Assembly: GCA_004284765.1 (NCBI GenBank)
Contig: NQJD01000007.1
Coordinates: 70,831-102,830, forward strand
DNA: 32,000 nt
From: Candidatus Electronema aureum
Lineage (GTDB): Bacteria > Desulfobacterota > Desulfobulbia > Desulfobulbales > Desulfobulbaceae
Reading direction: 5' to 3'
Shown piece by piece: positions 2,914 to 31,687 of this stretch. The notes beneath the pieces were generated by a model. It was not told where the DNA came from, made no database searches, and saw only the letters and a program-made list of their open reading frames with translations. The position numbers were made by a program, and so were the translations under genes. Each line of letters opens with the position of its first letter. Positions within the stretch are counted from its first letter, which is position 1.

Positions 2914-4069
2914 ACAAACCCTTCTCTGGCTTGCCGTCCTGCTGCTTGCCGTGACAGGTTTCACTGTCGCCCTTTATTCCGCCCACAGCCATTATCAGAA
3001 CTACACCGACCCACTTTACAGCAGCTTTTGTGCCATCAGCCAAGCCATCAACTGTGACACGGTCGCGCAAAGTCCGTGGTCAGTTATATTTGCAATCCCG
3101 GTCGCGTGGTGGGGTGTGCTGTTCCATGTTTTCCTCCTGCTCATCCTCCTGACAGAAGACCGTCGCAATCTTGCAGCTTGGCAGGGATTCTTCTTTGTGA
3201 TGCTCATCGCCTCCGCTGTCACACTGGGGCTGGCGGCCATCGCCGTCACGCAGATAAAATCGCTTTGCCTTGTTTGTCTTGTCACCTACGCCATCACCTT
3301 TGCCCTGACCTACACTTGCTGGATTGGCAGACGGCGGTGCAAAGAGGCTGTTGAAAAAAGCACCGAAGGATTCAGCGCAACATTCAGCAAGAAAGACATG
3401 CTGCGCAATTACAACGTCGCCGCCGGGGTGTTCTGCGTCAGCCTGCTGCTGCTATATGGCCTGATGCCCCGCTACTGGCTGCTTGCTCCGGCGCAGGCGG
3501 ACATCAGTGGCCTGCCGCAGGGCGTGACTGCTGACGGTCATCCTTGGATCGGAGCGGAAAAACCGCAGCTGACCATAACGCAATTTTCTGATTACCAGTG
3601 CTTTCAATGTAGCAAAATGTATTTCTTGTTACGCCAGTTCTTGATTGCGCACCCCGACACGCTGCGTTTTGTTCATCGTCATTATCCGATGGATCATAAA
3701 GTCAATTCAGTCATCGTGCCGGATGCGTTTCACGAAGGTTCAGGAGATTTGGCGAAAGTTGCCATCTTAGCCGCAATACGGAATAAATTCTGGTCAACTA
3801 ATGAGCTGCTCTACTCGATGATGCGCAGCGGCGGCAAGGTCAAAGAAATTTCTCTCAAAGAACTTGCGGAGAAAACTGGACTTGATAACAACGAACTTTC
3901 CGCTGCCTTGTCGCATCTGGCCATAGCAGAAATGCTCCGCCGGGACATCTGGGACGGCATGAAGCTGGGTATTACCGGCACACCGGCTTTTGAAATTAAC
4001 GGCAAAGTCTATCAAGGTCATATTCCTGCCGAAATCCTCAAACAGATTGCCGAGCTGCCGAAAAAATGA
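2888..4069 (+). CDS. VKOR-domain / DsbA-like thioredoxin fusion (periplasmic disulfide-bond formation protein)
   Basis: The N-terminal membrane domain has loop cysteines (FCAISQAINCD), SPWS, and a TM CXXC (SLCLVCLV), as in vitamin K epoxide reductase homologues. The C-terminal domain has the DsbA-type active site FSDYQCFQC. The ATG at 2888 overlaps the upstream stop by 26 nt. Confidence 0.85.
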   Translation: MNNNHLHRKQTLLWLAVLLLAVTGFTVALYSAHSHYQNYTDPLYSSFCAISQAINCDTVAQSPWSVIFAIPVAWWGVLFHVFLLLILLTEDRRNLAAWQGFFFVMLIASAVTLGLAAIAVTQIKSLCLVCLVTYAITFALTYTCWIGRRRCKEAVEKSTEGFSATFSKKDMLRNYNVAAGVFCVSLLLLYGLMPRYWLLAPAQADISGLPQGVTADGHPWIGAEKPQLTITQFSDYQCFQCSKMYFLLRQFLIAHPDTLRFVHRHYPMDHKVNSVIVPDAFHEGSGDLAKVAILAAIRNKFWSTNELLYSMMRSGGKVKEISLKELAEKTGLDNNELSAALSHLAIAEMLRRDIWDGMKLGITGTPAFEINGKVYQGHIPAEILKQIAELPKK

Positions 4070-5757
4070 CTTCGCAGCAAGCAAGCTTCGTCGGTGACCA
4101 CAAGAGCATCCGCTGGCTGTCGGCCGTTTGTCTTGCGCTGGCTGTCGTCTGTGTCGCGCTCTTAGCCTGCACCCCGCCCTTTGATCGTGATGGTCTAATT
4201 CACCATCTCCAAATTCCCAAGCTCTACCTTCAGCACGGCAGCATCTACGAGATTCCCGATCTCGTTTTTTCCTACTACCCCATGAATTTAGATATGCTCT
4301 ACATGGGAGCCTTATGGCTTGGCAGCGACATCTTGCCTAAATATATCCACATGGCTTTTGCTTTCGCCACGGCCCTGCTGCTTTTTTTTCATCTAAAAAA
4401 ACGGATAGCCAGCACCTATGCGTGGCTGGGAGCGGTCTTTTTCCTCAGCGTTCCGGTCATTGTCAAGCTCTCGGTGACGGTTTACGTTGACCTTGGCTTG
4501 GTCTTTTTCAGCACCGCTGCTTTGCTGTTGCTTTTTCGTTGGTTAGAGACAAAACGATGGCAGCACCTGCTGCTGGCAGGATTCTGCGGCGGCTTGGGTA
4601 TCGGCACCAAATATAACGGGCTATTAGTGCTCTTTATCCTGACTTTCATGGTTCCGGTGCTATGGATCAGAAGTCAGGTGTTGCATCAGAGAGCTGCTGG
4701 CCCGGCTGTGAAGGCGGCTGTGCTGTTCTGCCTTGCCGCGCTGCTGGCCGCCTCGCCGTGGTTGATCAGAAATGCGGTCTGGACCGGCAACCCGATTTAT
4801 CCACTCTACAACGGCTTTTTTAACCGAGCTGCTGCGTCTGCTGAAGATACTGCAACCAGTGATGGTGAAGCGCAGGGTGGCGGGGTTCGGGGCGTGTTCG
4901 CCACTCGCCATGTTTTATACGGAGAAAATATTTGGCAGCTGATCCTGCTACCGGTGAGGATTTTTTTTCATGAAGCGCAGGATGACGATCCTCGCTATTT
5001 TGATGGCAGACTCAATCCCTTTCTTCTGATTTTACCTATCCTTGCCTTGCTTCGTAGTATACGACAAGCAAACAAACAAACTCAACTTGAGCAAATAGCC
5101 TTGGCCGCATTCTGCTTGCTCTATTTTCTTTTCGCCTTCAACACCGGGGTACTGCGCATTCGCTATCTGGTGCCGATGGTGCCATTCCTGGTGATTTTAT
5201 CCATGTACGGGTTATATCATATTGAAATGCTCACGCCAAAACACGTGGCAAAACAAAGCATTGCTCTTGCAATCTGGCTGCTACCGATAACCCTGATGCT
5301 GATTTGGAACGGTCATTATCTTTATGGCCAGTTCAAAAAAATTTCTCCGTTGAGCTATATCAGTGGACGGTTAAGCAGGGATGAATATTTAGCCAAACAA
5401 CTTCCCGAATATCAGGTAATGCAATACGCTAACAAGCATTTACCTGCTTCAGCCAAAATTCTTTGTATTTTTATGGGCTGGCGGGGCTATTATTTGGAGA
5501 AGCCGCATTCATTTGACTCTCACGGCAATCCAAATGGCTTGATAGCTTTGCTGAACAAGCCCGGAACAACAGCAGAACAAATTGGACAATGGCTAAAAGA
5601 AAAAGGCTTCAATTATTTGCTGATTCGGCGGGATTTGCTCTACAATCAGCTGCGCAGCGAAGATATCAACGCCCAGCAGCTCTGGGTTGAGCTGGAACAA
5701 AAGCATTTGCTGCCGCTCTCATCCAATCAGGAATATACTCTATATCAGGCCTTCTGA
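4066..5757 (+). CDS. polytopic GT-C-fold membrane glycosyltransferase-like protein (PMT_2/ArnT/GT39-like)
   Basis: 563 aa with roughly 10 or more hydrophobic helices. It has an acidic first-loop motif (PPFDRDGLIHH) and a GTKYNGLLVL segment typical of PMT_2/ArnT-like proteins, plus a soluble C-terminal ~130 aa. An ATGA start/stop overlap (4066-4069) joins it to the VKOR-DsbA gene. The family assignment rests on motif resemblance only. Confidence 0.55.
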   Translation: MTSQQASFVGDHKSIRWLSAVCLALAVVCVALLACTPPFDRDGLIHHLQIPKLYLQHGSIYEIPDLVFSYYPMNLDMLYMGALWLGSDILPKYIHMAFAFATALLLFFHLKKRIASTYAWLGAVFFLSVPVIVKLSVTVYVDLGLVFFSTAALLLLFRWLETKRWQHLLLAGFCGGLGIGTKYNGLLVLFILTFMVPVLWIRSQVLHQRAAGPAVKAAVLFCLAALLAASPWLIRNAVWTGNPIYPLYNGFFNRAAASAEDTATSDGEAQGGGVRGVFATRHVLYGENIWQLILLPVRIFFHEAQDDDPRYFDGRLNPFLLILPILALLRSIRQANKQTQLEQIALAAFCLLYFLFAFNTGVLRIRYLVPMVPFLVILSMYGLYHIEMLTPKHVAKQSIALAIWLLPITLMLIWNGHYLYGQFKKISPLSYISGRLSRDEYLAKQLPEYQVMQYANKHLPASAKILCIFMGWRGYYLEKPHSFDSHGNPNGLIALLNKPGTTAEQIGQWLKEKGFNYLLIRRDLLYNQLRSEDINAQQLWVELEQKHLLPLSSNQEYTLYQAF

Positions 5758-19428: not shown

Positions 19429-21081
19429 ATGGTCTATTATGACCAGAAAGTTTTCGTGAGCGCAACGTTTTTGTCGAAAAACATGTTTCTTTCCGGCAGC
19501 AGCCAGATGACCGCCATGCTAAGAACCTGCGTGACATCCACAGGGAAATTTCGGGTCGGCGTACACCGACCAAGCTATGCTGTTCGTAATTTGCGAGACC
19601 AAGATTTTTTGCTGCGTCTCGGCACACTGCCCGACGGCACCGTAGTGGACAATCAAGCGAATTTCCCCTCGGGCGATGTGCGTGAGACGGAAGGCCGCTG
19701 GATTTACGAAATCCCCAATGCCTTTCCTTGTCACGGCGCGACCTATATTGACTCCGTTTGGGCAGCGGCGCGTGCTGAGAACCCCGGCCTGATTCAAATT
19801 GAACCGCCGCCGGAATGCTCCCTCTCGCAGTCGCTTGGCCTGAGCGAAGAAGAACGACGAAGTGTGCTTGACCACCTGCCTTTACCGCTGAAATACGCTT
19901 TAGCCGCTAGTTCCACCGACCCAGAAGAGCTGATTCTGCTGGCGCACACCTGCTGCCGGATGGAGTTTAACGGCGAAGGTCAGCCCGTCGGCCTGAAATA
20001 TTTGCGGCCCGGCAAAGCGGACATTGATGATTTCGAGCTGTTCGAGACCATTGCCAATAACCCACATCTGCCTGATCAATACAAAGAGATCATGGTGCTG
20101 CGGCCCGGTGTGCAGGGCAACAGCGAGATTATTGGCCGTTACGCAGAGGACACCCATGTGTTCGAGTACCTGCGCCGTAACTCCTATATCCCGTGGGGCC
20201 ATTATGCCGCCAACATGGCGCACGATGCTGTCCGCTACCGCACCTCTGATCTGACCTTCAGCGACATCAGAGGATTGCGCCATCTCTATTATCAGCGAAT
20301 GATCGTCACACTGGCCGAACGCTTCGGCATCAATCTTGATTTGCCCAAACGCAGTTTGACGACGGATGAGCTGGAATCTTTGCGCAGAAAAGTGCTGACA
20401 GCGGCAGAACAAAGCGGCCAGCATCCAGCCACGCTTTGGGGCTGGAATTTCGGTTATGATTTCTCCGGCTCCGGTTATCGGCTCCATGCCTCCCATCAGA
20501 TGATTCATCAGCAGTACGCGCTCACTCCTGAAGAGATTGAGACAACGGACGGCGACGCGATGCCGAGCTATAGTTGCGGTGATCAAGTGGCAGAAGTGAT
20601 TGCACAGTACGGTGGCGATTTTTTTTGTGATTATCTTCGCTGCATCCGCGAGAATAAGCGCACAGACCGCGATCCGGCAAAAGAGCGCAGTTTAATTGTC
20701 CACGAAGATGCAAACATGCTGCTTTTTGTGCCCAAGGCGCAGACTTCACAGTGGGAATTGCAGCTCATGGTTATTGCCGATGCGGATGGCCAGCCAATCG
20801 GCAATGTGCTGGAGGCGGACGCGGCGGTGCGCGAGTCAATTGACCGTGGCATCCTGCTGGCCCAGCATATCTTTGCAAAACTGGGGGCAAGAATGGTCAC
20901 TTCGCTGGAATACTCCAAGCGGATCGGCATCCGCAACGGCCAGCGGCTGCTCTATGCCTTTCTGCCCAAGCTGCCGTGGTCAATGGGCGCATTCAGCGAG
21001 GCCCAGCACCGGTATATCAGCAGTCATTTTCCAGAGGATTTTGCGACGGCGTGCCGCAGGCAGATTGAACACATTCAATGA
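19429..21081 (+). CDS. hypothetical protein (about 520-550 aa, no family recognised)
   Basis: A long ORF with coding-like composition, same strand as the next gene and 16 nt upstream of it. The start is uncertain: candidate ATGs at 19429, 19483, 19507 and 19516, none with a clear SD. Notable segments are YIPWGHYAANMAHDAVRY, WGWNFGYDFSGSGYRLHASHQMIHQQY, and LLFVPKAQTSQWELQLMV. The last faintly recalls GalT/HIT-type half-domains. Confidence 0.6.
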   Translation: MVYYDQKVFVSATFLSKNMFLSGSSQMTAMLRTCVTSTGKFRVGVHRPSYAVRNLRDQDFLLRLGTLPDGTVVDNQANFPSGDVRETEGRWIYEIPNAFPCHGATYIDSVWAAARAENPGLIQIEPPPECSLSQSLGLSEEERRSVLDHLPLPLKYALAASSTDPEELILLAHTCCRMEFNGEGQPVGLKYLRPGKADIDDFELFETIANNPHLPDQYKEIMVLRPGVQGNSEIIGRYAEDTHVFEYLRRNSYIPWGHYAANMAHDAVRYRTSDLTFSDIRGLRHLYYQRMIVTLAERFGINLDLPKRSLTTDELESLRRKVLTAAEQSGQHPATLWGWNFGYDFSGSGYRLHASHQMIHQQYALTPEEIETTDGDAMPSYSCGDQVAEVIAQYGGDFFCDYLRCIRENKRTDRDPAKERSLIVHEDANMLLFVPKAQTSQWELQLMVIADADGQPIGNVLEADAAVRESIDRGILLAQHIFAKLGARMVTSLEYSKRIGIRNGQRLLYAFLPKLPWSMGAFSEAQHRYISSHFPEDFATACRRQIEHIQ

Positions 21082-21097
21082 TGAAGGATATGGAGCC

Positions 21098-21910
21098 ATG
21101 AAAAAAGTCGCATCGCTGAAATACGGGGTCGTTTTCAGAAAGGCGTTCTGCGATCCTGAGATATTCACCGCATTTGCGCAGGACATCATCGGCCTGCCTG
21201 TGAGTGTCGAGCTGGTGGAGACGGAGAAGGAGTTTGAGCCGCCTGTCGGCTATATCAAGCCGCGCTTCGATCTCTTTGCCGAAGACACGCAGCACCGGAT
21301 CATCATTGACATCCAACACGCACGCACCGCCGACCACTACGACCGTTTTCTGTACTATCACTGCGCCGCTCTGTTGGAACAAATCGCCAGCTCACACAAC
21401 TACCGCCCACCTTTGGCCGTCTATACCGTGGTAGTCCTCACCTCTGGCGACCGTCATCAATGCGACATTGCGGTGACGGATTTTGATCCTCATGATCTCG
21501 CAGGCAGGCCACTGAAGGAGATTCCCCACAAGGTGATTTATCTTTGCCCGAAATATGCGGACGAAAACACGCCGGAGCCGCGCCGCGCTTGGCTGCGCGC
21601 CATTAACGACACGCTTGACGAGGAAGTTGATGAAAGTCTGTACCAGCAGAGCGCGATTCAGAAGCTCTTTGCCGCCATTCAACGCAACTGCTTCTCCCCA
21701 GAAGAGCGGGCGCGGATGATTGAGGAGTATCATCAAGAGGAGCTGCGTCAGACCAAGTTTGAGGAGGGGAAAGCGGAGGGCATACGGATCATTGCGGAAC
21801 GGATGCTGCGGCAAGGCATTGCGCCGGAGATGGTTGCTGAAGCTACAGAGCTGTCTACTGCCGAACTGGCCACGCTTGCGGATGAGATGCGGTGGAAGGC
21901 GGATTATTGA
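21098..21910 (+). CDS. PD-(D/E)XK nuclease family protein (Rpn/PDDEXK_2 'putative transposase' type)
   Basis: The true start is ATG 21098 (GGAG 3 nt upstream), inside track ORF 20696..21910. Pattern: VVFRKAFCDPEIF..FAQDIIGLPV, then FDLFAED, then IIIDIQHAR...YDRFLYYHCAAL (a D...D-x-Q core, as in the E-x-Q of this family). The C-terminus has EEGKAEGIRIIAERMLRQGIAPEMVAEATELSTAELATLA, the typical tail of this family. Confidence 0.75.
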   Translation: MKKVASLKYGVVFRKAFCDPEIFTAFAQDIIGLPVSVELVETEKEFEPPVGYIKPRFDLFAEDTQHRIIIDIQHARTADHYDRFLYYHCAALLEQIASSHNYRPPLAVYTVVVLTSGDRHQCDIAVTDFDPHDLAGRPLKEIPHKVIYLCPKYADENTPEPRRAWLRAINDTLDEEVDESLYQQSAIQKLFAAIQRNCFSPEERARMIEEYHQEELRQTKFEEGKAEGIRIIAERMLRQGIAPEMVAEATELSTAELATLADEMRWKADY

Positions 21911-22162
21911 ATGGAGATGAAAATGCAGGCAAATATAAACAAGGTTCAGATTGGTCATCAGACAATTGATCTGCTTGATCTCCCTGAAGTAGCGCAGCAG
22001 GAATTGCTGACATTTTATAATTTCTTGATCTTTAAATATCAGGTGCGGAAGGAACGTGCTGATCAGGACAGAAAGACTGTTCTAAAAGGCATCTTTCAGG
22101 AGGCAAAAGGAAAGTTACCAGCAGGATACGTATTTGACCGGGCAGAGATTCATGAGCGATAG
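21911..22162 (+). CDS. type II antitoxin candidate (DUF2281-like)
   Basis: 83-aa ORF starting immediately after the upstream stop and overlapping the PIN gene by 11 nt. LPEVAQQELLTFYNFLIFKY resembles the DUF2281 antitoxin motif. Confidence 0.6.
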   Translation: MEMKMQANINKVQIGHQTIDLLDLPEVAQQELLTFYNFLIFKYQVRKERADQDRKTVLKGIFQEAKGKLPAGYVFDRAEIHER

Positions 22163-22556
22163 ATTCTTTACCGACACAAATATTCTGGTGTATTCTATGG
22201 CGGATGATCTTCGGAAGAGGGAGATTGCGGAAGAGCTGCTGCTGCAAGACGGCGTTGTAATGAGTCCGCAGGTGATCAGCGAGTTTGTCGCGGTGACACT
22301 TCGCAAGCGTATTTTAGAACCGGAGAAGGTGCTTGAATATGCCCGCAAGTTTCTCCATATTTTTCAAATTACAGCGACCAATGCCGACACCGTTGCGACA
22401 GCCCTTGATGTCATGGCCAAATACCATTTTTCCTATTGGGACAGCCTGATCCTTGCAGCAGCATTGGAAAGTTCGTGCGCTGTGGTTTACTCTGAGGACT
22501 TGCAGACTGGGCAGCAGATTCAAGGCAGACTGACGATTGTCAATCCATTCAAATGA
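22152..22556 (+). CDS. vapC: PIN-domain ribonuclease toxin (VapC-like)
   Basis: The ATG at 22152 gives MSDRFFTDTNILVY (first acidic residue). Later acidic residues are in SPQVISEF, YWDSLILAAA and YSED. 134 aa, classic VapC size and spacing. Confidence 0.8.
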   Translation: MSDRFFTDTNILVYSMADDLRKREIAEELLLQDGVVMSPQVISEFVAVTLRKRILEPEKVLEYARKFLHIFQITATNADTVATALDVMAKYHFSYWDSLILAAALESSCAVVYSEDLQTGQQIQGRLTIVNPFK

Positions 22557-22595
22557 GCACATTTCTTTAAAAGAAATCCAAAGGAGGATATTCCC

Positions 22596-23552
22596 ATGAA
22601 CAAGAGGACTATTTCTATTTGCGGCGCGGCGATGTTTCTTTCGCTGCTGGTGTCTTCGGCGTTTGGCTATGAGAAGGAGATTGAGGAGCTTTCCGCGCAG
22701 ATGGCGGAGAAGATTGCTGGGAAAGGCAAGAAGACCGTTGCGGTGGTGGATTTCACCGATTTGGAAGGCAATGTAACGCAGCTTGATCAGTTTATCGCTG
22801 AAGAATTTTCCGTTGCGCTTGCGAGTGCGGGTAAAGGATTCCGGGTGATTGACAGAACCCGTCTGAAGAGCATTATCAAGGAGAACAAGCTCGCAGCAAC
22901 GGGCCTGATTGATCCGGCAACAGCAAGCAAGTTGGGAAAGATTGCCGGAGTTGATGCGCTGGTGACAGGAACGCTGACACCGTTTGGCGACAACGTGCGG
23001 CTAACGGTCAAGGTATTGGATTCAGAGACGGCAGACATTATCGATTCAGCAAAAAGCAATTTTGCGAAGACGCAGGCGATTAACGAGCTGTTTGGGAAAG
23101 AAATCGATTCAAAAAATGTTTCTTCTCTTACAGAGAGAACGAAAGCGGCAGATGGAAAAACGGCAGATTCTCAGGTTGTTAAAGGTATATTGTTTGAAGC
23201 GAAAGGGTGTAAACTATCCGGCGGATCGTTAATCTGTCGCCTCCTTGTTACAAGTCAAGATGAAGATAAAGAAATTTCTGTTTTCAATGACCATGACTGG
23301 AGTGCAAGGACTAGAGTTTTTGACAACATGTCAAACGAATATAGAGCATCTATGTTGGAAATAGCAAATAAAAAATCTAGATCAAGCAGTGCTGGACACA
23401 CGCTTGTGTCTGGAGTTGCAACAAAATTAGCTTTTACTTTTGAAGGGATTAAAGAGAGTATGGAGTCTTTATCGCTTCTCGAAGTGGCTTTTTCAGATGA
23501 AAACGATAACAGAAGCAAGGCGCAACTCCGCAATATCCCTGTATCAAGGTAG
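22596..23552 (+). CDS. secreted protein with FlgO/LpoB/CsgG-like (TolB-N-like) domain plus an unknown C-terminal domain
   Basis: Strong SD (AAAGGAGG) and the signal peptide MNKRTISICGAAMFLSLLVSSAFG. KTVAVVDFTDLEGNVTQLDQFIAEEFSVALA...GFRVIDRTRL...KLGKIAGVDALVTGTLTPFGDNVRLTVKVLDSETADII matches the FlgO/LpoB-type fold pattern. The last ~140 aa could not be assigned. Confidence 0.65.
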   Translation: MNKRTISICGAAMFLSLLVSSAFGYEKEIEELSAQMAEKIAGKGKKTVAVVDFTDLEGNVTQLDQFIAEEFSVALASAGKGFRVIDRTRLKSIIKENKLAATGLIDPATASKLGKIAGVDALVTGTLTPFGDNVRLTVKVLDSETADIIDSAKSNFAKTQAINELFGKEIDSKNVSSLTERTKAADGKTADSQVVKGILFEAKGCKLSGGSLICRLLVTSQDEDKEISVFNDHDWSARTRVFDNMSNEYRASMLEIANKKSRSSSAGHTLVSGVATKLAFTFEGIKESMESLSLLEVAFSDENDNRSKAQLRNIPVSR

Positions 23553-23583
23553 GAGCTGATCTTCTATACATTTTTGTTGGCAA

Positions 23584-24129
23584 ATGAGCGATAACGGCAA
23601 TAAGTGGGACAGGAATCAAATACTGACGCTCATCGGCGTTATTGTTGCAGCAGCAACATTGGTAGCTTCTGTCGTAATTCCTGAAATGAGGAATTGTTTC
23701 GGCCTGAAAGACGACAATACGCCTGCGCCAGTGCTTCCCGCACCGACACCGCAGCCGGAACGGAAAACAATTCCGCCGAAGATTGAAACGCCGCACGCGA
23801 AACCGGCAGCAGTGCCAAAACCAAAGCCGCCGGTGATTCATCAAGCGGTGCAGGAACCTGCTGATCCGCAAGAATACACCATCGGCGAAAACAAGAGCGA
23901 GCTGGTCAAAGAGGCGAAGGCAAGATTGTCTGTTTCGTTCCATGATGATACTGGAGAGATAACAGCCAAAATTACCATCTCGCCTGCTGGCAAGGACTCA
24001 ATCGTTCTTCCAACCGTTGGCATCGGCAGCAAGGAGTTTGCTTCCTCAACAGGAGTTTTCCTTGTCCACGTCCTGAATGTGGATTGGAACAGCCGGACAG
24101 TCACGGTTCAGGTGAGCCGGAAAGGATAA
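23584..24129 (+). CDS. single-pass membrane-anchored protein with Pro-rich linker (hypothetical)
   Basis: 181 aa. TM helix ILTLIGVIVAAATLVASVVI, then a Pro/Lys-rich linker (PAPVLPAPTPQPERKTIPPKIETPHAKPAAVPKPKPPV), then a ~90-aa beta-rich C-terminal domain. The SD is weak. Confidence 0.5.
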   Translation: MSDNGNKWDRNQILTLIGVIVAAATLVASVVIPEMRNCFGLKDDNTPAPVLPAPTPQPERKTIPPKIETPHAKPAAVPKPKPPVIHQAVQEPADPQEYTIGENKSELVKEAKARLSVSFHDDTGEITAKITISPAGKDSIVLPTVGIGSKEFASSTGVFLVHVLNVDWNSRTVTVQVSRKG

Positions 24130-24165
24130 AGATAAAGCGGGGAAACGTCTCACTTCGTTTGCCGC

Positions 24166-24417
24166 GTTTCACGCTTAAATCGTCGCAAATCACGCTTCAA
24201 GCAAGACGATTCACGCGTGAAACATCCCGTTTTAAGCGTGAAGCAACATGATTCACGCGTGAAATGCTCTGGTTCACACGTAAAGCGTCACGTTTCACGC
24301 TTAAAATGAGCCGATTGAAGCGTGAAACGCCTTGGTTGAAGGGTGAAGCACGATGATTGAAGAGTGAATTGCCTCGTTTCAAGCGTGAATCAGGGCGGTT
24401 TAATCAGCGGATGCGGC
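24166..24417. repeat. tandem array of 11-12 units of exactly 21 bp with a (pseudo)palindromic 12-14 bp core (TTCACGCGTGAA type) and a ~7 bp variable spacer
   Basis: Parsed by hand from 24166 in strict 21-nt register: gtttcacgcttaaatcgtcgc / aaatcacgcttcaagcaagac / gattcacgcgtgaaacatccc / gttttaagcgtgaagcaacat / gattcacgcgtgaaatgctct / ggttcacacgtaaagcgtcac / gtttcacgcttaaaatgagcc / gattgaagcgtgaaacgcctt / ggttgaagggtgaagcacgat / gattgaagagtgaattgcctc / gtttcaagcgtgaatcagggc / ggtttaatcagcggatgcggc (degenerate). Confidence 0.9.
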
Positions 24418-24472
24418 GGTTACGGCTTCTGAAAAAATGAATTAAGTCAGCAGAATCAAAAAAGGATCTTCT

Positions 24473-25702
<1,230 letters not shown>

Positions 25703-30102: not shown

Positions 30103-30270
30103 CTGACATGCGGCAGATACGGTCTGCTTTGTGACATGTTAAGCCCGACATGCGGCACGTCAAGGCTGCTTTGCCCCATGTCAAGCCGGACACGAGGCAG
30201 GGGCGACCTGTTGTACGGCAGGTCAGGCTTGACATAAGGCAGATGCGGCGGCATGTAATCCTACACAGGC
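30103..30270. repeat. four tandem degenerate 42-bp units (3 x 14 bp sub-period) with conserved core GACATGCGGCAG
   Basis: Parsed by hand in strict 42-nt register: ctgacatgcggcagatacggtctgctttgtgacatgttaagc / ccgacatgcggcacgtcaaggctgctttgccccatgtcaagc / cggacacgaggcaggggcgacctgttgtacggcaggtcaggc / ttgacataaggcagatgcggcggcatgtaatcctacacaggc. Units 1 and 2 match at 31 of 42 positions by my count. Confidence 0.8.
30229..30259 (+). promoter_or_regulatory. possible sigma-70 promoter for the DAHP synthase gene, inside the last repeat unit
   Basis: TTGACA (30229-30234) and TGTAAT (30254-30259). The spacer is 19 nt, longer than optimal, so this is weak. Confidence 0.3.
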
Positions 30271-30283
30271 AAAAGAAGCCAGC

Positions 30284-31687
30284 ATGTCTCTCCTCCAGAT
30301 TTCAACCTTTGCAAATACCGCTATGACTACTTGGAACAAATCTTCTTGGAAAAGCAAAACCGCCCTGCAGCAGCCGGAATGGCCTGCGGCGGAGCTGCAT
30401 GAAGCCAACAAACTGCTCTCGCACCTGCCGCCGTTAGTGGCTGCGGGCGAAATCCGCGACCTGAAAGCGCATTTGGCCAAGGCGGCCAAGGGCCAGGCCT
30501 TCCTGCTGCAAGGCGGCGACTGCTCGGAGGAATTCGCCCGCTGCTCCGCGCCGAACATCAAAAGCACGCTGAAAGTGCTGCTGCAAATGGCCGCGATTTT
30601 GACCTACGGCGGCGGCAGGCCGGTGATCAAAGTAGGCCGCATGGCCGGCCAGTACGCCAAGCCGCGCTCCAGCCCGACCGAGATGGTCAACGGCGTGGAG
30701 CTGCCCAGCTACCGGGGCGACATGTGCAACTCGGTGGAGGGCACGCCGGAGGCCCGCAAGGCCGACCCGCAGCGGATGCTCAAGGGCTACTATCTTTCCG
30801 CCGCCACGCTGAACCTGCTCCGCGCCTTTGCCCAAGGCGGCTTCAGCTCGCTGCACAACGTGCATAAGTGGAATCAGGAGTTTGTCAAAAATTCGCCAGT
30901 CGGCGGCTCCTACGAGCAGAGCGTGGCCCGGCAGATCGAGCGGACGCTGACCTTCATGGAGAACATCGGCATCCACACCGACATGCCGCAGATCAAGGAG
31001 GTGGAGTTCTTCACCTCGCACGAGGCGTTATTCTTGGATTACGAGGAGTCGCTGGCCCGCGAGGATTCAGAGGACGAGGTGCCGGGCCGCTGGTACGACT
31101 GCTCCGGCCACATGCTCTGGATCGGCGACCGCACCCGCCAGCTTGAGGGCGCGCATGTCGAGTTCCTGCGCGGCGTGCGCAATCCGCTGGGCATGAAGGT
31201 CGGGCCGGGCCACAACCCGGAGGAGATCGTCAAGGTGATCCAGCGGCTCAACCCGGACAACGAGGAAGGCCGGATGACCCTCATCACCCGCTTCGGCGCG
31301 GGCAAGGTGGAGCAGTATCTGCCGCCGCTGATCCGGGCGGTCAAAGGCGAGGGCTTGAACGTCCTCTGGTGCTGCGACCCCATGCACGGTAATATTCGCA
31401 AATCTCTGAGTGGTTGTAAAACCCGCAGCTTTGAGGATATTTTGGCAGAGTTGCAACAATTTTTTGCCGTTTGCCAAATAGAAGGCGCAGTACCGGGTGG
31501 GGTGCATTTTGAGCTGACCGGCAAAGACGAGCAGACCGGCGATGTCACCGAATGCACAGGCGGCGCGTCCGGCCTGAGCGACGAAGGACTGCGCCGCAAC
31601 TACTGCACCGCCTGCGACCCCCGCCTGAACGCCGAGCAGTCCTTAGAAATGGCCTTTAGAATTGCTGAGATGATAAAGGGAAGCTGA
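30284..31687 (+). CDS. class II (plant/actinobacterial type) 3-deoxy-7-phosphoheptulonate (DAHP) synthase
   Basis: WNKSSWKSKTALQQPEWP, LPPLVAAGEIRDLK, and GQAFLLQGGDCSEEF are the class II DAHPS N-terminal signature. Further motifs are KVGRMAGQYAKPRS, WIGDRTRQ, DPMHGN, and CDPRLN. The start is ATG 30284 or 30323. Confidence 0.9.
   Translation: MSLLQISTFANTAMTTWNKSSWKSKTALQQPEWPAAELHEANKLLSHLPPLVAAGEIRDLKAHLAKAAKGQAFLLQGGDCSEEFARCSAPNIKSTLKVLLQMAAILTYGGGRPVIKVGRMAGQYAKPRSSPTEMVNGVELPSYRGDMCNSVEGTPEARKADPQRMLKGYYLSAATLNLLRAFAQGGFSSLHNVHKWNQEFVKNSPVGGSYEQSVARQIERTLTFMENIGIHTDMPQIKEVEFFTSHEALFLDYEESLAREDSEDEVPGRWYDCSGHMLWIGDRTRQLEGAHVEFLRGVRNPLGMKVGPGHNPEEIVKVIQRLNPDNEEGRMTLITRFGAGKVEQYLPPLIRAVKGEGLNVLWCCDPMHGNIRKSLSGCKTRSFEDILAELQQFFAVCQIEGAVPGGVHFELTGKDEQTGDVTECTGGASGLSDEGLRRNYCTACDPRLNAEQSLEMAFRIAEMIKGS

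Follow-up and report, generated by a model that had tools for sequence, protein, structure and literature searches.

We examined a 32,000-nt stretch of the Candidatus Electronema aureum genome (contig NQJD01000007.1, positions 70,831 to 102,830; hereafter the window, with coordinates counted from its first letter) and found that the array of 21-bp repeats lying in it immediately upstream of the tryptophan synthase gene trpB belongs to a dispersed family of non-coding cis-elements that is confined to cable bacteria. The anatomy of the array, the family to which it belongs, selection on a duplex-symmetric motif and on its phase, the link between one end of an array and gene starts, and the insertion at trpB are established. 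The reading that we favor, at a probability of about 0.5, is a docking platform: a dispersed cis-regulatory cassette to which a sequence-specific protein would bind cooperatively beside a promoter.

The array at the trpB locus was delimited by stepwise reading and repeat finding. It consists of eleven units in exact register (24166..24396, no strand assigned, as for the other symmetric features below) and a terminal degenerate 12th unit (GGTTTAATCAGCGGATGCGGC, 24397..24417). Each unit is made of a head of the type G-W-TTCACGCGTGAA and a variable tail, with zero indels across the eleven units and the degenerate twelfth. Tandem Repeats Finder reported a period of 21 and 0% indels in two blocks (24190-24263 and 24313-24389), and a repeat listing gave 10 copies at 21-bp spacing. 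The palindromic core TTCACGCGTGAA is perfect (0 mismatches) in unit 3 (24210..24221) and unit 5 (24252..24263). With up to 2 mismatches allowed, the core was found 8 times in the 32-kb window against 1.5 expected; all 8 matches fall inside the array and in register, and none of the shuffled sequences reached 8. The unit classes, given as strong (S) and weak (w) half-sites, run in the order Sw Sw SS wS SS S? Sw wS wS wS wS. The preliminary description of this DNA had already noted the strict register without indels, the conserved head with its non-conserved tail, the full palindromes in units 3 and 5 among left-strong and right-strong units, and an array end 55 nt before the trpB ATG (24473); all of these were confirmed.

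Two further modules flank the repeats. On the left lies a hairpin (24135..24169, + strand, GCGGGGAAACG...CGTTTGCCGC; fold -13.3 kcal/mol, z -2.6), which is conserved in orthologues; its right arm consists of TTTGCCGC, a motif found at the border of several family arrays. The hairpin had been described as closing the upstream gene; it exists, but a terminator scan found no terminator-like site at 24135-24169 and it is not a canonical terminator. On the right lies a promoter-like end module (24431..24453, + strand) with the A-tract GAAAAAA, a TG, the -10-like AATTAAG and TCAGCAG, directed toward trpB (24473..25702, + strand), which encodes tryptophan synthase beta (PALP domain, E value 5.7e-41; homologues named tryptophan synthase beta). 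Hairpin module, array and promoter-like module together form a cassette at 24132..24453, with boundaries accurate to +/- ~10 bp.

The family as a whole yielded 127 units with the consensus G A T T C A [C/A] G C [G/T] T G A A T C R N N N Y. Position 16 is a pyrimidine in every unit and position 1 in none; position 17 is a purine, and position 21 a pyrimidine, with few exceptions. These constraints mirror one another (R1/Y21, Y16/R17, and T3T4.A6 versus T11.A13A14) about two dyads 10.5 bp apart, one at the center of the core and one at the center of the spacer, and therefore fit recognition of double-stranded DNA. Positions 7 and 10 were C/T in 42 units, A/G in 59, C/G in 11 and A/T in 7. Because C/T and A/G predominate, nearly every unit combines one strong half-site (TTCAC; GATTCAC) with one relaxed half-site (TTNAA; GATTNAA), and the units are asymmetric, either TTCACGCTTNAA or its complement TTNAAGCGTGAA. 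The core classes listed in the preliminary description thus stand, but its picture of a mixture of palindromes gives way to units that pair a strong half-site with a weak one and always point inward across the array. The TTCACGCTTNAA form occupies the left part of the array (mean relative position 0.15-0.31) and the complement TTNAAGCGTGAA the right part (0.63-0.83) in all 10 of 10 independent arrays. The polarity is accordingly inward from both ends in 10/10 arrays, and again in Electrothrix. The left/right layout is unchanged by reverse complementation, so each array is an independent trial of inward versus outward, and 10/10 inward would be expected by chance about once in 1000.

An element acting at the RNA level was considered as an alternative. 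In such a case the transcript of the array would be a leader, a 3' untranslated region or a small RNA that forms a long hairpin or offers repeated sites to an RNA-binding protein. Both strands do fold better than dinucleotide shuffles (z -3.8 and -5.5), and the array, being placed between co-directional genes, may well be transcribed. However, in 12 arrays the natural succession of units has no folding advantage over permuted ones (z -2.0 to +2.3), the spacers are non-complementary across the array, the bases at positions 7 and 10 of a unit are mostly non-pairing (C/T or A/G), and the motif occurs in both orientations within one array under strand-symmetric constraints. Rfam gave 0 matches at gathering score, with only chance-level ones far below threshold. 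Long hairpin or foldback pairing was tried as a candidate and rejected: the spacer triplets are complementary along no axis and permuting the units leaves folding no worse. A specific long RNA or DNA hairpin is unsupported for these two reasons, and we regard an RNA-level element as improbable.

A protein-free structural element was weighed in the same way. The TT (positions 3-4) and AA (positions 13-14) dinucleotides recur every 10-11 bp and pyrimidine-purine (YR) steps fall at 16/17 and 21/1, so that phased TT/AA and YR steps could give an intrinsically curved or anisotropically flexible DNA that, purely through its shape, stimulates or insulates the promoter. In a wedge model, the window array lies in the most curved 0.3% of the window's 231-bp stretches, and the L119 array is extreme. 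On the other hand, predicted curvature is ordinary for L123, L061, L054, L097 and L081, which is half the family, so static bending is not a common property. Shape by itself also fails to explain conservation of particular bases, such as the coupling of C7 with T10 or A7 with G10 and the invariant T11, or the inward polarity. We give this explanation as little weight as the RNA-level one.

The distribution of the family was determined by a genome scan in which two adjacent units served as the pattern and each of 185,579 species was represented by one genome. Ca. Electronema sp. PJ, TJ, JC and JM each had matches on several contigs, as did two Desulfobulbaceae metagenome-assembled genomes (MAGs); every cable-bacterial match was an array of 10-17 units in strict 21-bp register. 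A looser three-unit pattern recovered further arrays from metagenomes. Orthologues of the window array are present in L052, L087, L102 and L112 and, in reversed orientation, in L010, L071/L096 and L084. Apart from the trpB site, Ca. Electronema and Ca. Electrothrix genomes and metagenomes have arrays in at least seven further intergenic contexts. One array lies between pdxJ and tig (L054) and one next to a remnant open reading frame, on its aroC side (L061). Others precede a spy-like gene (L069) and genes for an opp ABC ATPase (L060), a metallophosphoesterase (L123), a TP-methylase (L114) and a 200-aa fn3-domain protein (L081, L094 and L119). Two to three arrays were detected per draft genome. 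Since the two-unit pattern matches only 3/5 independent arrays first recovered with the other pattern (~60% sensitivity), each genome probably contains a handful of arrays rather than hundreds. Across 189 kb of cable-bacterial DNA, a 16-bp site pattern was found nowhere but inside arrays. A coding repeat was ruled out by stop codons in all six frames of every cable-bacterial array. The idea of a unique, trpB-specific element therefore did not survive the scan of relatives that had been proposed as a check: the array belongs to a dispersed family standing before unrelated genes, it is missing before trpB in near relatives, and in others toxin-antitoxin cassettes intervene. The statement that no described element has this unit did hold, as none was found in the literature or in the Rfam, plasmid and phage collections searched; among 8 million papers and preprints none contained the core sequence, and the cable-bacteria literature searched, including the genome papers, described no such repeats.

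Whether the family is under constraint was read from arrays of different divergence. The window-array orthologues come from close relatives (TrpB 95-98% identical) and are for this reason of limited value for judging constraint; they include the gain (L052) and the loss (L071) of exactly one 21-bp unit, in phase, and multi-base switches between strong and relaxed half-sites. At the fn3 locus, arrays from three genomes (fn3 proteins 74-81% identical) keep the register with no indel over 12 units. Their pairwise identity is 0.79 at pattern positions (T11 1.00; A6 and A14 0.94), 0.60 at the positions that define strong and relaxed half-sites, and 0.31, which is saturation, at spacer positions 18-20; the intergenic DNA adjoining the array aligns poorly by eye. 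Saturated spacers beside a kept motif and a kept 21-bp register indicate selection on double-stranded DNA, that is, on head and phase, and the family has been maintained for motif and phase, not for exact sequence. Ca. Electrothrix aestuarii and Electrothrix sp. Rat3 (fn3 protein ~65% identical) also carry an array at the fn3 locus, with the same register, inward polarity and end type. Its presence there in both genera is why the family appears to predate the Electronema/Electrothrix split.

The 200-aa fn3-domain protein downstream of this oldest array (L081 6519-7127, L119 3677-4285, L132 3001-3606; homologues P0121-P0240) itself shares ~60% identity between phyla as distant as Sumerlaeota and Planctomycetes, which points to horizontal spread.

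The ends of the arrays follow a common plan. Each array terminates in a degenerate unit followed by TGCGG-like bases, giving the family end motif GGTTNAAGCGGC...TGCGG. One end carries an A-tract and then TG and a -10-like hexamer (10 arrays), with the consensus GTGCTTTGCGGAGAAAAAAGCTGTATAAT.CTCAGA in six copies, and the gene on that side is oriented away from the array. The module stands before gene starts at most loci, namely trpB, fn3, tig, spy-like, TP-methylase, metallophosphoesterase and opp ABC, and in L123 it runs into the start codon of the metallophosphoesterase gene. We infer that this end module is a promoter. A sigma-54 promoter at the array end was considered and rejected, the spacing being off by one when inspected by eye.

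The arrival of the array at trpB can be followed in relatives. In the window, the element is preceded by a gene (23584..24129, + strand) for a 181-aa membrane-anchored, proline-rich protein, which lies outside the element and whose synteny is kept in relatives; its translation has an N-terminal transmembrane segment and a Pro-rich linker, and it gave no Pfam match. A CsgG-like lipoprotein gene (22596-23552) precedes it. Three relatives with TrpB 91-94% identical (L128, L124 and L130) have the same gene order and no array. In L128 (TrpB 94%) the CsgG-like gene and the 181-aa homologue are present and the stop codon of the latter is 48 nt before trpB; in L124 the stop codon of the 181-aa homologue is followed directly by a toxin-antitoxin cassette. 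More distant relatives have other neighbors and no array. Since near relatives keep the gene order without the array, parsimony suggests that ~322 bp (24132-24453: hairpin, array and promoter-like module) were inserted here in an ancestor of the window's group. The junctions of the window versus L128 showed neither a target-site duplication nor a clean terminal inverted repeat, and no donor for the trpB copy was found among the arrays compared.

The stretch from the array (or the upstream gene) to trpB is also a hot spot for small cassettes (L052 3026-3906, L087, L102, L112, L010 and L124). One is a TumE-toxin pair and another starts with ATGGCAGTGCAGAC; both occur in some relatives, and neither does in the window. 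In L131 (3891-4001; TrpB 88%) a 550-aa unknown gene stands directly before trpB, at 110 nt, and the 3.4 kb of the window at 21081-24473 (PD-(D/E)XK, VapBC, CsgG-like and 181-aa genes and the array) reflect either an insertion here or a deletion in L131.

An insertion of this kind is what a non-autonomous mobile repeat would produce, and this is the main rival to the docking platform. Its inverted arms, as in a foldback element, would be tandem sites for a transposase or recombinase supplied in trans, and the trpB copy would be selfish, with incidental effects such as an outward promoter at most. Besides the array-free site in near relatives and the dispersal over at least seven contexts, the overall inverted symmetry with similar ends (GCCGC...GCGGC) speaks for it. 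So do the arrays duplicated within one genome: L060/L061 in TJ and L054/L069 in PJ are related beyond the motif as whole arrays, and L061 and L060 carry along a truncated version of the metallophosphoesterase start found in L123. Both observations indicate that arrays are copied as blocks with flanking DNA. Yet the copies that include flanking gene fragments look more like products of segmental duplication than of transposition, none of the arrays has an associated transposase, the junctions show neither of the usual marks of transposition, and the copy number is low. The units within an array are old and diverged, and the fn3 copy has been retained at its locus in two genera, its motif and phase kept and its spacers randomized, which is unexpected of an inert relic. 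We consider a selfish mobile repeat of this kind unlikely.

The array can also be compared with known interspersed repeats. REP/BIME, MIRU, BOX and Correia-type miniature inverted-repeat transposable elements (MITEs) likewise consist of short palindromic or tandem units, are dispersed between genes and differ in presence or absence between relatives; some interspersed repeats carry promoters or protein-binding sites. A MITE-like polymorphism is seen here, with L128, L124 and L130 lacking the array between the same genes. The array ends share GCCGC/GCGGC and a degenerate unit, but the comparison of the window with L128 reveals neither a target-site duplication nor a clean terminal inverted repeat, and no RAYT or transposase gene is linked to the arrays. 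REP/BIME elements are imperfect palindromes, often alternating in orientation, that reach hundreds of copies between genes; the family here is likewise dispersed and palindromic, but 2-3 arrays per genome were detected in draft genomes with a ~60% sensitive pattern. The family differs further in its strict 21-bp register, its conserved motif with diverged spacers and its long persistence at one orthologous locus in two genera. The eukaryotic FB foldback elements resemble the arrays in having two inverted arms of short tandem repeats; the arms here are non-complementary beyond the motif, lie in a bacterial chromosome, and no transposition machinery was found. The array is not a CRISPR, as had been stated before: CRISPR repeats of ~23-50 bp alternate with spacers of ~26-72 bp, whereas the whole unit here measures 21 bp, of which just 5-7 nt vary.

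Tandem sites that one protein binds cooperatively, building a nucleoprotein structure, are known from plasmids and phages. Theta-plasmid iterons and the phage lambda origin (O-some) consist of tandem ~17-22-bp sites spaced by two helical turns, and the lambda sites are internally symmetric. Plasmid centromeres are also repeat arrays, onto which a DNA-binding adaptor is loaded: F sopC has 12 x 43 bp, each with a 16-bp inverted repeat, R1 parC has 10 x 11 bp and pSK41 parC has 20-bp repeats. The likeness to iterons and the O-some lies in tandem, helically phased repeats of ~17-22 bp (here 11-12 units in exact 21-bp register), and that to centromeres in many phased repeats, ~12 units as in sopC. 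The preliminary description had accordingly offered both plasmid iterons and a partition site as models of cooperative binding. An integrated replicon and a chromosomal parS-like site were both considered; the half-site GTTTCAC equals a parS half-site. Several results speak against such an origin. No rep, parA, parB or parR gene occurs within ~10 kb (Pfam annotation of the window and of a 21-kb locus), and the neighbors are housekeeping genes. The arrays occupy many chromosomal loci, before unrelated genes and without an adjacent initiator gene or par operon. BLAST searches of 72,556 plasmids and 50,697 phages found nothing similar, and scans of viral contigs gave unrelated repeats only, namely perfect coding-type 21-mers and a different palindrome, GCGTGAAAATCACGC (L005). 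The core TTCAC-GC-GTGAA is two central bp longer than parS. No parS with up to 3 mismatches was found in the window, and across 189 kb of cable-bacterial DNA the only match to the parS consensus TGTTNCACGTGAAACA at the same threshold is a site in L001 with 3 mismatches. The arrays also have 10-17 units versus 3-7 in iterons and the O-some, and an inward polarity in place of an all-direct arrangement. An iteron or centromere is thus largely refuted, and only the landing-pad part of the cooperative-binding proposal remains as the best explanation.

In this docking platform, a sequence-specific protein would occupy every unit on one face of the helix, 21 bp being two helical turns. The bound protein may then polymerise cooperatively from both array ends, for which the inward polarity is the sole clue, and the polymerised protein would control or insulate the adjacent promoter, here the one before trpB. 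Known LytTR sites offer a geometric lead to the binder: they are 9-11-nt repeats separated by 11-13 nt, with a period of ~21 bp, in direct or inverse orientation (PMC4847170). The array unit shows this geometry, with a ~12-nt conserved block and ~9 looser nt making up 21 bp. The CACGCTTAAA portion of the unit resembles AgrA/Pln-type boxes. Known LytTR sites are paired, however, versus runs of 10-17 here, and no LytTR gene was found near any cable-bacterial array in the loci examined, so that a LytTR-type regulator is suggested by geometry only. The only LytTR regulators seen lay close to a Thermoanaerobaculia mini-array or in a Bacteroidetes locus, and the only Ros/MucR gene at the E. aestuarii locus.

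Several observations weigh against a docking platform that regulates adjacent genes. A generic promoter scan called no promoter at 24431-24453, and the promoter assignment of the end modules is a matter of consensus resemblance with a poor -35. The trpB genes of near relatives do without the array, which is hence not essential for trpB, and in several orthologues a toxin-antitoxin cassette lies between array and trpB. The genes downstream of the arrays have no common functional theme, and no DNA-binding gene recurs beside the arrays among the diverse flanking genes of the cable-bacterial loci. Presence or absence at the trpB site and the overall inverted symmetry fit a mobile element as well. 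The regulatory and the mobile readings would nevertheless be compatible, since a mobile promoter-plus-operator cassette would fit both.

Pattern matches in other phyla (Aminicenantes, Thermoanaerobaculia, Myxacorys/Leptolyngbya, Verrucomicrobiales and several metagenome families) were not counted as members of the family. These arrays have near-identical units, open reading frames or a 7-bp periodicity, and could be chance ascertainment of 21-bp tandem repeats. In the Aminicenantes MAG LacPavin_0920_SED2_MAG_46_26, GATTCACGCGTGAAAC is repeated 2-3 times at 21-bp spacing (L049 5263-5325), and ~29 units of 21 bp form a 189-bp higher-order repeat (L031 6194-6802) flanked by a giant histidine kinase-like gene and an extracytoplasmic function (ECF)-type sigma factor gene; the two could represent an independent occurrence of a like site in another phylum or, again, chance ascertainment. 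The Thermoanaerobaculia MAG SMAG_U1735 has three ACTTCACGCGTGAAGTGCRCG arrays of near-identical units (L057 251-460, L070 77-202 and L076 7306-7515); at a distance of 3.7 kb from the L070 array are genes for two LytS-type kinases and for a LytTR response regulator (3916-4683). Tandem 7-bp repeats occur at several loci per genome in the Bacteroidetes MAG MFD05513 (L026, L028, L039, L058 and L082) and in a Saccharibacteria MAG (L024 and L032); their heptamers GC(G/T)TGA(A/G) or ACTTGAA correspond to two heptads of the cable-bacterial unit (GATTGAA|GCGTGAA). Other 21-bp tandem families with the skeleton TT.A....T.AA.YR...Y and highly similar units were found on the metagenome contigs L090/L101, L095/L116, L108, L111/L121 and L122, with those of L095 and L116 directly upstream of a gene start.

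The window itself is ordinary chromosome. It carries a pilA/TPR cluster, asd, prs, corA, leuB, rsmG, hemA, a GGDEF-EAL protein gene and cobO, next an Rpn-type PD-(D/E)XK gene, a VapC toxin gene with a 79-aa partner, the CsgG-like lipoprotein gene and the 181-aa protein gene. Downstream of the array are trpB, a hybrid histidine kinase gene and, farther on, a class-II DAHP synthase gene. Genes for replication or partition are absent. An identical TrpB protein is encoded on OW818638.1 (GCA_942492785.1), and the closest TrpB relatives are labelled Ca. Electronema, which places the window in a freshwater cable bacterium of the Desulfobulbaceae. At 28-2913 of the window, a PilA-like gene with an N-terminal methylation motif is followed by a TPR protein gene; this is the pilA/TPR cluster reported for cable bacteria (PMC10580974). 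At 30105-30200 there are ~2.3 copies of a 42-bp unit (GACATGCGGCA...CTGCTTTG...CATGT.AAGCC) with internal inverted repeats in each, ~85 nt upstream of the class-II DAHP synthase gene (30284-31687). It is the second odd repeat to precede an aromatic amino-acid gene here and is confined to that locus among the DNA compared.

Phased protein-binding arrays as such were already known; what is new is a phased repeat array that is conserved, portable, promoter-associated and specific to cable bacteria. A bolder and more tentative extension, which we hold to be possible but doubtful, is a lineage-specific 'super-operator': a promoter together with 10-17 phased sites would form a portable cassette that arose before the Electronema/Electrothrix split, would have been copied to new genes and would wire them to one filament-forming DNA-binding protein. 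The cable-bacterial filament is centimetre-long and the cells along it differ in chemistry. To our knowledge, cable bacteria are not yet in pure culture and almost nothing is known of gene regulation along the filament. A large ordered array near the promoters of several genes provides a concrete handle, and the 21-mer can be used as a protein bait; sister lineages that have the same genes with and without the cassette provide a natural experiment. The family also shows a route by which a whole regulatory platform with its promoter moves before new genes. If the super-operator were true, it would mean that a multicellular bacterium controls its genes, globally or by position, in a way not seen before.

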